DNA from: a virus
Taxonomy: Duplodnaviria; Heunggongvirae; Uroviricota; Caudoviricetes
Strand: one strand, 5' to 3'
DNA length: 7,257 nucleotides
IMG/VR virus record: IMGVR_UViG_2609459831_000014
Shown here in pieces: positions 542 through 6,232 of the stretch. The stretch's first letter is position 1, and each line of letters opens with the position of its first letter. Below the pieces are notes generated by a model. That model ran no database searches. It saw only the letters and a program-made list of their open reading frames with translations, and was not told the origin of the DNA. The position numbers and the translations under genes were made by a program.

Positions 542-1579
542 TTAACGCTTATCCGCCACCAGTTTGAGCGCGTGTTCCAGCACATTAATGTCTGCACCCG
601 CTTTATGGGCATTTTCACTTAAATAACGCCGCCACTGCCGCGCGCCAGGAATACCCTGGAACAAGCCCAACATATGCCGGGTAATATGACCGAGATACGT
701 CCCCTGGCTGAGTTCACGCTCAATGTACGGATACATGGCGCGCACTACCGCCACCGGATCGGCATCGATATCCGAGGAACCAAAGATCTCCCGGTCTACC
801 GCCGCCAGAATACCCGGATTCTGATACGCCTCGCGCCCGACCATCACGCCATCCATATGTTGCAGGTGTGCTTTGGCCTCTTCCAGCGACTTGATACCAC
901 CGTTAATCGACATTGTCAGATGCGGAAAGTCACGCTTCAGTTGATACACACGCGGATAATCGAGCGGCGGGATCTCACGGTTTTCTTTCGGACTTAACCC
1001 CGAAAGCCAGGCTTTACGTGCATGGATGATGAACATCTCACACTCGCCTTTGCCGGAAACGGTGTTGATGAAATCGCAGAGAAATTCATAGCTGTCCTGG
1101 TCGTCGATGCCAATACGCGTTTTCACCGTCACCGGAATCGACACCACATCGCGCATCGCTTTCACGCAGTCGGCAACCAGCTGCGCATTACCCATCAGAC
1201 ACGCACCAAACATGCCGTTCTGCACCCGGTCAGACGGGCAGCCGACATTCAGGTTGATCTCATCATATCCACGCGCTTCTGCCAGCTTCGCACACTGCGC
1301 CAGCGCCGCCGGATCGCTACCGCCGAGTTGCAACGCTACCGGATGTTCTTCTTCACTATACGCCAGGTAATCACCTTTACCGTGAATAATCGCCCCTGTA
1401 GTTACCATTTCAGTATACAGCAACGTATTGCGGGAAAGCAGACGCAAGAAATAGCGGCAATGTCTGTCCGTCCAGTCGAGCATAGGAGCAATGCTAAACC
1501 GAGAATTCCAGTAAACACCAGTTTTTTCAGGCATCACGCTGGTTTGATTAATTTTTTGTGTTTCATGATTATCGTGCAT
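542..1579 (-). CDS. dusA: tRNA-dihydrouridine synthase A (Dus family flavin oxidoreductase), 345 aa
   Basis: Full-length ORF with Dus-family hallmarks ([32 protein letters not shown]). ATG at 1577-1579, stop TAA 542-544. Alternative internal start at 1532-1534 (MPEKTG...) would give 330 aa. No clear SD before either start. pspG synteny supports the call. Confidence 0.9.
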
Positions 1580-1667: not shown

Positions 1668-2765
1668 ATGGCGTACTATAACATAGAGAAACGACTAAAA
1701 TCCGATGGCACACCACGCTATCGCTGTAATGTGATTATCAAAGAAAAAGGTGTTATCACTTACAGGGAAAGCAAAACATTCCCTAAACATGCTCATGCCA
1801 AAACATGGGGCACACAGAAAGTGATGGAATTAGATCTATATGGCATTCCATCATCAAATGCAGTTGACGGACTTACAGTCCGTGACTTACTACACAAATA
1901 TTTAAATGACCCAAATGCCGGAGGTAAAGCAGGCCGTACTAAAAGATATGTGCTGGAACTGCTTATGGATAGTGACATCTCCGCGATCAAACTATCTGAA
2001 CTGACAGAAAATGACGTAATTGAACATTGCAGGCTAAGAAACAACGCTGGTGCAGGTCCAGCTACAGTTAGCCACGATGTTAGTTATCTTGGCAGTGTTC
2101 TGGATGCTGCCAAACCTGTATATGGAATTAATTACACATCAAACCCAGCAAAAGCCGCTCGTCCATATCTACTTAAACTTGGTTTAATTGGTAAATCAAA
2201 TCGTCGTAATCGTAGACCGGCATCTGATGAACTGGACATGCTCATTGAAGGTCTTCAACAACGATCTACACATAAATGCTCAAAAATTCCGTTCGTTGAT
2301 ATCCTCAAATTTTCTGTGTGGTCATGTATGCGAATCGGTGAAGTATGCCGATTACGATGGGAGGATCTCGATCAGGAACAAAAATCCATACTCGTAAGAG
2401 ACAGGAAAGATCCACGTAAAAAGGAAGGCAACCATATGAAAGTAGCCTTGCTTGGGGAAGCCTGGGATATCGTCCAACGACAACCCAAAAAATCAGAATT
2501 CATTTTTCCATATAACAGCACTTCTGTTACTGCGGGATTCCAGAGGGTAAGAAGCAAATTAGGTATTAAAGATCTGCGATACCATGATTTGCGTAGAGAA
2601 GGGGCAAGTCGCTTATTTGAGGCTGGTTTTAGTATTGAGGAAGTCGCCCAGGTTACAGGGCATCGTTCATTAAACGTGCTATGGCAGGTATATACCGAAC
2701 TGTATCCGAAATCTTTACATAATCGTTTTGAAGAGCTCCAAAGGAGCAGAAATAAGACCTCTTGA
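1668..2765 (+). CDS. int: Tyrosine site-specific integrase, 365 aa, candidate dusA-targeting family
   Basis: ATG 1668 preceded by GAGG (1657-1660). C-terminal catalytic region has the tyrosine-recombinase signature (RYHDLRREGASR with H-x-x-R, then GHRSLNVLWQVYTELY with candidate catalytic Tyr). Divergent from and adjacent to the dusA 5' end. By eye more AT-rich than the dusA/pspG flank. Confidence 0.9.
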   Translation: MAYYNIEKRLKSDGTPRYRCNVIIKEKGVITYRESKTFPKHAHAKTWGTQKVMELDLYGIPSSNAVDGLTVRDLLHKYLNDPNAGGKAGRTKRYVLELLMDSDISAIKLSELTENDVIEHCRLRNNAGAGPATVSHDVSYLGSVLDAAKPVYGINYTSNPAKAARPYLLKLGLIGKSNRRNRRPASDELDMLIEGLQQRSTHKCSKIPFVDILKFSVWSCMRIGEVCRLRWEDLDQEQKSILVRDRKDPRKKEGNHMKVALLGEAWDIVQRQPKKSEFIFPYNSTSVTAGFQRVRSKLGIKDLRYHDLRREGASRLFEAGFSIEEVAQVTGHRSLNVLWQVYTELYPKSLHNRFEELQRSRNKTS

Positions 2766-3218: not shown

Positions 3219-3782
3219 TTATTTCGTTTGAATGCCAGTAACAGGAAATCGTTTATATAGGGTTGATAGCCCAACGTTATAGATACGTGCAACATAACGC
3301 CGTGATTTCCCTGCCGCTATGAGCGCTCCCATCTGTTGCCACTGCTCGTCGCTAAACTTCGGTCTACGCCCACCAATCCGGCCTTTGGATCTGGCAATAG
3401 CCAAACCAGCTAAAGTTCGCTCGCTATTCAAATCAGATTCATACTGCGCAGCAGAAAGAATATTACGGAAATTATAGCGACCACTTGCTGTTTTCAGGTC
3501 TACGCCATCTGTAATACTCCGAAAATTAACACCTTTTTCGTGCAGATTTTGAAACATCAATAGCGCATGCAGCACATTTCTCCCTATCCGATCTAACTTC
3601 CAGACAATCAACTCATCTCCACTTTTCATCACCGTAATTAATTCCTTTAACACAGGGCGATTAGCTGTTCTGCCACTGGCATATTCTTCATAAATTCGCT
3701 CACAGCCAGCTGACTCAAGTGCAAGACGTTGCAACTCTGTATCCTGATGATTTGTTGATACACGAACATACCCGTAAATCAT
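3219..3782 (-). CDS. pin: Serine recombinase / DNA invertase of the Pin-Gin-Hin-Cin family, 187 aa
   Basis: N-terminus MIYGYVRVSTNHQ carries the catalytic Ser in the YVRVST motif; VWKLDRIGR and a C-terminal helix-turn-helix region (GRIGGRRPK ... STLYKR) are present. Length is typical for this family. Adjacent to an invertible tail-fibre segment. Confidence 0.9.
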   Translation of the reverse strand: MIYGYVRVSTNHQDTELQRLALESAGCERIYEEYASGRTANRPVLKELITVMKSGDELIVWKLDRIGRNVLHALLMFQNLHEKGVNFRSITDGVDLKTASGRYNFRNILSAAQYESDLNSERTLAGLAIARSKGRIGGRRPKFSDEQWQQMGALIAAGKSRRYVARIYNVGLSTLYKRFPVTGIQTK

Positions 3783-3787
3783 GAGTG

Positions 3788-3814
3788 CTTCTCCTGTTGT
3801 AAAAACAGGAGAAG
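3788..3814 (-). promoter_or_regulatory. Perfect 11-bp stem-loop sequestering the invertase Shine-Dalgarno
   Basis: CTTCTCCTGTT(3788-3798) and AACAGGAGAAG(3804-3814) with a 5-nt loop. On the minus-strand mRNA the 3' arm AACAGGAGAAG holds the SD AGGAG, 8 nt before the pin AUG. No U-tract follows, so it is not a terminator. Confidence 0.5.
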
Positions 3815-3850
3815 AGGCGAAATATCACCTGATTCAGAAAAATATTTGAA
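3815..3850 (-). promoter_or_regulatory. Candidate sigma70 promoter for pin
   Basis: Minus strand TTCAAA (fwd 3845-3850) - 17 nt - GATATT (fwd 3821-3826). The -35 overlaps the outer half of the left crossover site. Weak match. Confidence 0.25.
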
Positions 3851-3867
3851 AGGTTGGTTTGGGAGAA
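3842..3867. other. Invertase crossover site, left (gix/hix-like 12+2+12)
   Basis: ATATTTGAAAGG-TT-GGTTTGGGAGAA. The inner half GGTTTGGGAGA is identical, in inverted orientation, to the inner half of the site at 5930-5955. AAACC/GGTTT arms flanking a central dinucleotide resemble Gin/Hin-type sites. Confidence 0.5.
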
Positions 3868-4356
3868 GACTCTGCATTACCTGTTGGGGTGCCTGTTCCG
3901 TGGCCTTCAGCCACTCCGCCTACAGGCTGGCTGAAATGCAATGGTGCAGCTTTTTCTGCTGAAGAATACCCGGAACTGGTAAAGGCTTATCCGACAAATA
4001 AATTGCCTGATTTACGTGGTGAGTTTATTCGTGGCTGGGATGATGGGCGTGGTATTGATGCTGGACGTGCCTTGCTAAGTCTTCAGAATGGAGGAGTGGA
4101 ATCACACACCCACCAGGGACAGCTCTTCAGAGTCAGTGATTATCGTACAAAAGAAATACCAGCATCAGAAGTTATGGGAAGAGGATATATTGCAAGCCTG
4201 ACGCCGGGTGCTGATAGCCCACTTGATTTTGATGATTATTCTGTATCCTCTAATCCAAATGGATATTTTGTCGGGAATCAGAGAACAACAGCATATGGGG
4301 TAAATGAAACCCGCCCACGGAATATTGCATTTAACTATATCGTGAGGGCTGCATAA
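3850..4356 (+). CDS. Silent alternative tail-fibre C-terminal cassette (Sv'-like), promoterless with no own start codon; ~168 codons
   Basis: Frame opens right after TGA at 3847-3849. The track start at 3859 is TTG, an in-frame Leu within K-V-G-L-G-E-D. Product (PVGVPVPWPSATPPTGWLKCNGAAFSAEEYPEL...GEFIRGWDDGRG) is a typical variable tail-fibre C-terminal domain. Stop TAA 4354-4356 overlaps the next ATG (TAATG). Confidence 0.75.
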   Translation, partial: KVGLGEDSALPVGVPVPWPSATPPTGWLKCNGAAFSAEEYPELVKAYPTNKLPDLRGEFIRGWDDGRGIDAGRALLSLQNGGVESHTHQGQLFRVSDYRTKEIPASEVMGRGYIASLTPGADSPLDFDDYSVSSNPNGYFVGNQRTTAYGVNETRPRNIAFNYIVRAA

Positions 4357-5368: not shown

Positions 5369-6232
5369 TTATTTCCCTACCGCAATCCAGAAAAATGAAC
5401 TCATGCTGGCTACTGGTGCTCCGCCCGCTGTTGGAATCATCAGATTTCGGACGCCGCATCCTAAATTAGTTATCGTTGGCGCTGAAATTACTGGCGACTG
5501 AACTACGTTAGGAAGCGATACCTGCTGAGGACCAAATCCCACATACATCGGGTATGCAGAGAACGCGACAGGAAACGTAATAAAGATCTCTCCAGTTGAT
5601 GATGGATTGGCTGTCCCCCACTGAATAATCAGACCTGACGGTAATTTTTGCCAGCCAGGGCTGGTCAGGCTGGATGTGAAGTCATTCATATCCGGAATCT
5701 GATTTGCCCCTGAGCCAACATCCCTTTGAGCCGCACTTTTCAGATCAAGATAAGTTCTTAGTTCAGCCTTATCCTTACCGCTTAAATCTGTCAGTGTCTG
5801 GTCTTTTGGTTGCGCATAGTCTTTTGTTGCCAGACGAACTACTGTATTTGTTCTGGCGAATCGCATATACGGGGCATTGACGTTACTACTGTCAAACCCT
5901 GCAATTTTACATTCATCACCAATTAATGCATCTCCCAAACCAAGGTTTTCGAGAGCCGTTTTCACCGTGCCATCCGATTTGATATCGCCAAACGGATTCT
6001 TGCGGCTTAACAGCAGCGCACGAAGCGCGGTAAGCAACTGGTCGTGCCGCGCCTTCTCCAGGCTGGCACCGGATGCCTCCACCACGCTGCAGAGTTCTTC
6101 CTGCAACATATCAAAGTAGTCATCATCCAGATCGGTGGCAGGTGTGCCGGTCTGGGGGTTACCACGGGTAAAACCGTTCTTCCCCGCGCCGAACTTATCC
6201 TTCTGCGCGGTTTTCGTGTCTATACGATGCAT
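5369..6232 (-). CDS. Phage tail fibre protein, 287 aa: constant N-terminal part (6232 to ~5944) plus variable C-terminal part (5943 to 5369)
   Basis: ATG 6230-6232 with SD GGAG 7 nt upstream, starting 3 nt after the stop of the upstream tail gene. The crossover site lies inside the gene at codons ...ENLGLGD.... Size and position match an e14 StfP / Mu S-like fibre (from memory). Confidence 0.85.
5930..5955. other. Invertase crossover site, right (inside the tail fibre gene)
   Basis: ATCTCCCAAACC-AA-GGTTTTCGAGAG, an imperfect dyad. Its inner half is the reverse complement of GGTTTGGGAGA at 3856-3866. Confidence 0.5.

Follow-up and report, generated by a model that had tools for sequence, protein, structure and literature searches.

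The dose of a DNA invertase sets the rate at which the tail-fibre genes of phages and prophages are flipped, and hence host hedging. The textbook control of Gin, Hin, Cin and Pin is exerted by Fis, an enhancer and DNA topology. In the stretch of Caudoviricetes DNA analysed here (IMG/VR record IMGVR_UViG_2609459831_000014; 7,257 nucleotides, in the following called the window), a perfect inverted repeat that includes the ribosome-binding site lies directly in front of the start codon of an invertase gene, which raises the question of whether synthesis of this enzyme is also limited at the level of translation.

The inversion module

The window represents the end of a prophage inserted beside dusA and pspG. 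The dusA reading frame (542..1579, minus strand) is directly followed by a divergently oriented gene for a tyrosine integrase (1668..2765, plus strand), an arrangement consistent with an integrative element that targets dusA and, on insertion, provides the gene with its 5' end. The same dusA/integrase junction recurs in other E. coli strains. In window order, a DinI-like gene lies between the integrase gene and a serine recombinase gene, which encodes a pin-like DNA invertase of 187 residues starting MIYGYVRVST (3219..3782, minus strand; ATG at 3782..3780). The protein, here called Pin, consists of a resolvase domain (PF00239, 3.3e-36) and a C-terminal HTH_7 domain (PF02796, 7.3e-12) according to Pfam; it is 50-54% identical to Gin, Cin and PinE, and the catalytic N-terminus is conserved.

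An inverted-repeat search located two crossover sites of 26 bp, one proximal to pin (3842..3867, minus strand, TTCTCCCAAACC AA CCTTTCAAATAT) and one distal (5930..5955, plus strand, ATCTCCCAAACC AA GGTTTTCGAGAG). They are in inverted orientation and enclose a tail-fibre segment of about 2.1 kb, made up of two opposed sets of tail-fibre C-terminus and assembly genes (Collar, Caudo_TAP and Gp53-like_C in Pfam); the constant part of the tail fibre and the baseplate genes are encoded beyond it in window order. Judged by this architecture the segment is invertible, and the locus as a whole has the organisation of a Gin/Pin-type tail-fibre inversion module. Within pin, a 5' coding stretch (3692..3763, minus strand) is homologous to the part of P1 cin that is annotated as its recombinational enhancer (+19..+90), the conserved blocks in the alignment being GTATCAACAAA and (T/C)T(G/A)CAAC, and is by this homology a putative Fis-dependent enhancer.

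The evidence that Pin of the window is active is only indirect. When the window is compared with the corresponding dusA locus of two further E. coli strains, homology is lost precisely at the crossover sites (3868 and 5937); a stretch of tail-fibre-assembly sequence (tfa) that is shared with one of them, strain 97.3, is reversed there; and the identical leader is joined to many different cassette ends in IMG/VR contigs. Among 5426 complete E. coli genomes, none contained an exact flipped isomer or junction of the window segment.

A perfect hairpin that encloses the ribosome-binding site

Read in the mRNA sense (minus strand, 3814..3780), the pin leader is CUUCUCCUGUU-UUUAC-AACAGGAGAAG-CACUC-AUG, and the bases just upstream of it are ...UCGCCU. 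The 5' arm CUUCUCCUGUU (3814..3804, minus strand), recovered by repeat search and in the folds, includes the SD-pairing sequence CUCCU. It is separated by the loop UUUAC (3803..3799, minus strand; GTAAA in plus-strand reading) from the 3' arm AACAGGAGAAG (3798..3788, minus strand), which holds the Shine-Dalgarno (SD) sequence AGGAG. The latter (3795..3791, minus strand; -13..-9 relative to the start codon) lies wholly within the arm and all its bases are paired. Between SD and AUG there are 8 nt (AAGCACUC), the last five of which form a spacer, CACUC (3787..3783, minus strand), that is outside the stem and unpaired.

A preliminary description of this DNA had claimed a perfect 11-bp hairpin directly upstream of the pin ATG, with AGGAG at an 8-nt spacing within the 3' arm and paired to CUCCU, and both statements proved accurate to the base: the repeat search returned arms at 3788-3798 and 3804-3814 that are 11 nt each, 100% complementary (11/11) and 5 nt apart. 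This is the sole perfect stem of at least 11 bp in the window (loop of 3-8), and any such stem was present in only 1.0% of 1000 dinucleotide-preserving shuffles of the window.

Several familiar kinds of element were considered and rejected. The palindrome is not an intrinsic terminator, which had already been claimed because it lacks a U-tract: there are 0 terminator-like sites on both strands of 3600-4000, and the stem is followed by CACUCAUGA in the sense and by AGGCGAAAU in the antisense direction, with no T-run on either strand. RNA thermometers of the ROSE and fourU types are similar in that the SD is sequestered by a 5' UTR hairpin; they differ, however, in having mismatches or bulges and marginal stability and in melting at 37-42 C, whereas the pin stem is a perfect helix of 11-12 bp with no internal weakness and is not marginally stable. 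A LexA box (CTGT-N8-ACAG) is excluded by its spacing, as the sequence reads CTGT-TTTTACA-ACAG with N7, and the element is unmarked among the LexA sites annotated nearby in phage phi80. A further crossover site, which would be a 12-2-12 dyad with TTNTCNNAAACC half-sites, is excluded as well: the outer TTCTCC alone matches, the geometry is 12-1-12 and AAACC is absent. Rfam 15 gave no match at 3780-3830, even at E <= 1.

Predicted occlusion of the start site

Folding of the leader, proposed in the preliminary description as a check, agreed with the idea of a sequestered SD. The 91 nt comprising leader and gene start fold at -31.2 kcal/mol (z = -4.7; -4.7 to -5.3 across runs) with the SD paired, and 0 of 200 shuffles were as stable. 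The hairpin by itself has -14.9 kcal/mol, and values for the perfect stem of 11-12 bp range from -14.1 to -14.9 kcal/mol at 37 C. For RNA 5' ends anywhere from -89 to -32, unpairing of the five SD bases is calculated to cost 13.8-14.6 kcal/mol, which leaves a predicted unpaired SD fraction of about 1e-10 at equilibrium; the SD:anti-SD duplex is worth -7.4 kcal/mol. The cost drops as the 5' end enters the 5' arm, being 11.5, 7.1, 3.9 and 1.5 kcal/mol for 5' ends at -30, -28, -26 and -21, so that the position of the transcription start is decisive.

The start-site opening energy, defined as the energy to open -17..+3, was computed for all 60 CDSs of phi80, the pinL gene of which has a leader identical to that of the window. 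With 17.4 kcal/mol, pinL has the highest value of the set (median 7.9, sd 3.0). On thermodynamic grounds, a very strong occlusion of the SD is predicted for transcripts that start at or upstream of -32. In the work of de Smit and van Duin, translation is said to be lost about 10-fold for every 1.4 kcal/mol of start-site hairpin stability, while in the empirical model of Salis the rate is reportedly proportional to exp(-0.45 x deltaG), corresponding to a reduction of about 500-1000-fold at 14-15 kcal/mol. Relations of this kind predict that the translation of Pin would be cut by at least two to three orders of magnitude.

Occurrence and conservation of the hairpin

Upstream of pinL in phi80 (NC_021190), the leader is identical to that of the window from the crossover-site remnant to the ATG. 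In this RefSeq record the two arms (23919-23929 and 23935-23945) are annotated as repeat_region 'IR3', with no function given. The tail-fibre cassette beside pinL is a pseudogene remnant, whereas the segment in the window is intact. Another copy of phi80 pinL with the identical hairpin is present beside yciI/tonB in the cloning strain XL10-Gold (NZ_CP081008, 1856365-1856943), and leaders of the window type were found in 94 of 5426 complete E. coli genomes, XL10-Gold among them; the module is thus common and easily tested. Published transcriptome or ribosome-profiling data for phi80-bearing strains such as XL10-Gold might already hold the transcription start site (TSS) and the ribosome occupancy. 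A second haplotype family, with the stem UUUCUCCUGUU / AACAGGAGAAA, occurs in phages HK225 and mEp237, in many IMG/VR contigs and in prophages of Kluyvera, Trabulsiella, Pseudocitrobacter, Shimwellia and Apirhabdus.

Conservation was assessed on 18 distinct leader haplotypes, i.e. the phi80/window type and 17 others. All 18 retain the stem, with opening energies of 13.5-17.7 kcal/mol, and when the upstream part is shuffled, the observed opening energy is attained no more than once in 100 trials. Variation affects only 3 of the 22 stem columns, whereas outside the stem 36 of 48 non-coding columns are variable (Fisher p = 1.6e-6). The 5' arm, itself without an SD function, is similarly constrained (2 of 11 columns variable, p = 8e-4), while variation was seen at 5 of the 6 third-codon positions sampled and at all five columns of the spacer, the length of which is 4-5 nt among relatives. 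The loop is U-U-N-A-Y throughout (18/18), positions 1, 2 and 4 being fixed while positions 3 and 5 vary. It resembles the YUNR motif that is typical of loops engaged in fast RNA-RNA pairing, although in 5 nt chance is an equally possible explanation. The hairpin is a real feature that is not due to chance and is conserved selectively.

Between the window/phi80 type and the remaining haplotypes, the lone stem difference is a compensatory double change that replaces the outermost pair C-G by U-A; a singleton stem mismatch occurs in one contig. In the 17 non-window haplotypes the stem is lengthened by a G.U pair, which is formable only in the sense-strand RNA. Overall, 98.4% of the cells are paired, there is one compensatory pair and 9 of 12 pairs are invariant. 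As the covariation amounts to a single event, with an observed score that was matched in 24 of 500 shuffles, what the data demonstrate is that the sequence is conserved, more than that the pairing is. Viral contigs were scanned with a gapped pattern, which yielded 16 distinct stem-spacer-first-codon sequences but no new stem variants for covariation analysis, and a scan of metagenomes returned almost only unrelated soil recombinases, plus one gut contig with a known stem. A small complementarity further upstream, GGUGA-UAUU-UCGCC (3816..3829, minus strand), was also seen in the folds; its pairs are kept in 96.7% of cells with zero compensatory changes, and it overlaps a candidate -10 element, GATATT (3826..3821), and a GC-rich stretch.

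Two side observations concern neighbouring sequences. In phi80 pinL, a leader of the window type (100% identical) is joined near the start codon to a coding sequence of the HK225 type, and this mosaic implies a recombination joint at or near the hairpin. The serine recombinases from soil- and peat-type metagenomes, which start MIYGYARVST, have direct repeats (GATGCA-n7-GATGCA) 15-40 nt upstream of the ATG and no SD hairpin; these repeats are probably binding sites of the recombinase, either autoregulatory or res-like.

Comparison with the classical invertases

The module shares with Gin, Cin and Pin of e14 the protein family, the crossover site, a short leader, the enhancer homologue in the 5' coding region and the tail-fibre cassettes. 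It differs from them in the leader: among the three classical leaders examined (Mu gin, P1 cin and e14 pinE), none has a stem comparable to the pin hairpin. Their opening energies are 11.4, 10.3 and 9.4 kcal/mol, respectively, and values as high are reached by 5-10 of 100 shuffles. In the remaining relatives, with 65-72% identity, structure ranges from none to moderate. A family-wide RBS-occluding fold in the Din invertases was considered and rejected as unsupported: RNAalifold on 28 leaders of the gin/pinE type produced just four invariant pairs (GCAU/AUGC) and no covariation. In such leaders GGCAU can pair with AUGCU and opening energies are somewhat raised; no covariation links GGCAU(C/G) to the base that precedes the AUG.

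As judged from the leaders compared, the perfect stem is a trait of one clade, the invertases that start MIYGY. Compared with leaders of the gin/pinE type, it may represent an inverted copy of the SD region that was inserted. Leaders of the gin/pinE type (Mu gin, e14 pinE and about 30 IMG/VR loci) have at -36..-18 the motif TGGCATNAT, 6-7 GC-rich bases and TTTT. The combination of TGGCATNAT, GC-rich run and TTTT is more readily interpreted as an extended -10 promoter, in which the GC-rich run would be the discriminator and transcription would begin near -20; no annotation of the TGGCATNAT motif was found in the records fetched.

That such a structure had not been described for Gin, Hin, Cin or Pin, as the preliminary description supposed, is broadly right. 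The leaders of gin, cin and pinE are indeed without a comparable stem, and among the full texts searched there was no paper on translational control of DNA invertases or on such a hairpin; the repeat itself, though, was already on record as 'IR3' in phi80. As far as searched, we are dealing with a familiar type of control, the RBS-sequestering hairpin, on an invertase gene where it is apparently undescribed.

Where pin transcripts may start

Promoter candidates were obtained with a crude sigma-70 matrix, which gives 35 matches with a score of at least 8 in the 7-kb window. One candidate is positionally conserved among the relatives: it combines a -35 element TTCAAA/TTTATA at about -67, a distance of 17-18 bp and a -10 element GAYNYT at -44..-39, and would start transcription at about -32, which is the first base of the stem. 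Its -35 sequence TTCAAA (3850..3845) lies inside the outer half of the pin-proximal crossover site, and its -10 element is poor (GATCTC) in one subgroup. The other candidate abuts the crossover site, with TATTTT/TATAAC as -10 element and a start at about -50. Both score 7.6-8.4, which is the background level for this matrix. Either of them would put both arms into the transcript, and a start from the conserved one would turn the stem into a blunt 5'-terminal hairpin. The TSS tables of two Cappable-seq papers list none in the region of e14 pinE, which has a different leader type.

A proposed translational throttle on invertase synthesis

We favour an interpretation, already suggested in the preliminary description, in which the hairpin is a constitutive translational throttle on any transcript that contains both arms. 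What the analysis establishes is the sequence, its predicted stability, its placement with respect to SD and AUG, and its selective conservation. The probability we assign to the throttle is only slightly better than even (about 0.55), as we infer every functional step: transcription of both arms, a limitation at translation, and a switching rate that is set thereby. Any pin transcript with a 5' end at or upstream of about 3812 would fold the 11-bp stem (9 bp would still be enough), and AGGAG would then be locked against CUCCU within it. As the 5' arm is transcribed first, the stem would close once the SD emerges, so that binding of the 30S subunit would be left to rare opening or to standby binding. 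Very little Pin would be made per transcript whichever promoter is used, including read-through from the late tail-fibre operon, and with Pin scarce, inversion of the tail-fibre segment would be rare. If transcription starts at about -32, the stem would also form the very 5' terminus of the mRNA, where it could shield the transcript from 5'-end-dependent decay. Several considerations speak against a throttle: at equilibrium, a perfect stem of -15 kcal/mol is predicted to almost abolish translation of a gene that otherwise looks functional; the classical relatives function without such a stem; covariation amounts to a single event; the promoter candidates score at background level; and the exact flipped isomer of the window segment did not turn up in the genomes searched.

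The role of the stem is most likely ordinary in kind, that of an RBS-sequestering hairpin; its strength and its target are what is unusual. In the mRNAs of the IS10 and IS50 transposases, fold-back structures inhibit the translation of read-through transcripts. There, too, a DNA-rearranging enzyme is kept scarce by pairing of its RBS with an upstream segment, which protects against transcription from outside. In IS10 and IS50, however, transcripts from the element's own start lack the 5' arm, which is located further upstream, and read-through RNAs alone are blocked, whereas transcripts from both candidate promoters of pin would include both arms. A second likeness is with the MS2 coat gene series of de Smit and van Duin, where a simple stem-loop likewise holds the SD in its 3' arm and an exponential drop of expression with stability is expected. 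That series is an engineered or viral model, and the pin stem with its -14.9 kcal/mol is at the extreme end of its scale.

A translational lock, if true, would add a promoter-independent layer to invertase control, and it would explain why Pin is scarce in this clade despite a strong late operon reading towards pin. The hairpin may also be of use as a compact natural part for cutting leak in recombinase-based genetic switches. The general understanding of translation control would be left unchanged by it.

Alternative explanations

Where transcription begins bears on two of the alternatives. The stem might serve for insulation only, as in IS10 and IS50, if pin had its own promoter starting within or downstream of the 5' arm, in which case just the transcripts from outside (the late tail-fibre operon or the antisense of the silent cassette) would be blocked. 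We regard this as unlikely. In its favour, read-through is plausible with pin downstream of the tail-fibre operon on the same strand, and the SD is freed stepwise (11.5 to 1.5 kcal/mol) when the 5' end enters the arm. The best positionally conserved promoter candidate starts just at the edge of the stem (about -32), so that an imprecision of a few bases matters. There is, however, no -10-like hexamer placed for a start at or beyond -26, the DNA there being CTCTTC / CGTTTC, and CUCCU is contained in the transcript from both candidate promoters. The same predicted start at the first stem base would suit a very unlikely alternative, according to which the hairpin is mainly a 5'-terminal stabiliser, a blunt stem-loop against entry of RppH and RNase E, with translation by the standby route. 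It is known that 5'-terminal stem-loops, e.g. that of ompA, stabilise E. coli mRNAs, and the G at -32 of HK225-type leaders would give a blunt stem of 12 bp; but the promoter call is at background level, and inclusion of the SD would be unnecessary for stabilisation, as known stabilisers leave the RBS free.

The strong conservation of primary sequence with little covariation would also suit a protein-binding site in the DNA, i.e. a palindrome to which a dimeric protein, perhaps Pin itself, would bind as to a pseudo-crossover site or an operator, repressing transcription early in the transcribed region. In each arm TTCTCC, the outer hexamer of the crossover half-site TTCTCCCAAACC, is followed by an A/T-rich run, and TTCTCC-N13-GGAGAA spans 25 bp, close to the 26 bp of a true crossover site. 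Yet TTCTCC is largely dictated by the pairing with AGGAG (once CTCC is fixed, TT is expected in front of it in about 1 of 16 cases), the geometry and the core-proximal AAACC of a crossover site are missing, the N7 spacing is not that of LexA, and the inner half-sites of the relatives vary while the arms do not. Furthermore, the one paired change is outside the would-be half-site and nevertheless compensatory, and the G.U extension functions in RNA alone. We consider a DNA-level site distinctly improbable. That the palindrome has no function at all, being a by-product such as a template-switch duplication of the SD region carried along on a mobile pin module, we consider quite unlikely. The module is a mosaic spread by recombination, as the composite phi80 gene illustrates, and all known stems trace to two haplotypes; however, the stem is invariant in a setting where 75% of the non-coding columns around it are variable, as are 5 of the 6 third-codon positions sampled, and neutrality is hardly to be expected of so strong a stem when it covers the RBS of a functional gene. 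Very little weight, finally, is given to a regulated switch, in which the stem would be opened either by translation of an upstream ORF, with termination and reinitiation at AUGA, or by an antisense RNA starting from the base of the stem. An ORF at 3877..3779 ends in a UGA that overlaps the pin AUG and has an in-frame AUG available in both orientations of the segment; its AUGs, though, are without an SD and upstream of both candidate promoters, and stop codons close the frame in HK225-type and other leaders. The antisense version could draw on the YUNR-like loop U-U-N-A and on a promoter-like sequence on the plus strand, TTGATA-16-AATCAT (3755-3782), with an RNA start at about 3789, but its elements are the reverse of conserved codons in the enhancer homologue, the score is at background level and no terminator follows.

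The upstream reading frame and the antisense site

The upstream ORF (3877..3779, minus strand) has 32 codons, MQSLLPNQPFKYFSESGDISPLLLFLQQEKHS*. It begins in the invertible segment, crosses the hairpin and ends with a TGA that overlaps the ATG of pin (ATGA). After inversion, an in-frame ATG (..AATGCATCTCCC.., at about 5925-5927) would yield MHLPNQPF... in the same frame. The ORF was rejected as a conserved coupling device, as it lacks conservation beyond the window/phi80 leader type. It is hardly probable that the stem acts as a gate, with Pin made mainly when a ribosome that translates the ORF melts the stem and reinitiates at AUGA, an AUG being supplied by the segment in either orientation. 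If true, such a gate would couple invertase synthesis to transcription and translation leaving the tail-fibre segment, i.e. the DNA switch would be self-sensing; an antisense RNA from the base of the palindrome could play a similar role. The promoter-like antisense site at 3755-3782 (plus strand) overlaps the start codon of pin, and similar sequences, TTGACA/TTGATA-16-AAGCAT/TAGCAT, are found in pro483, e14 and P1 cin.
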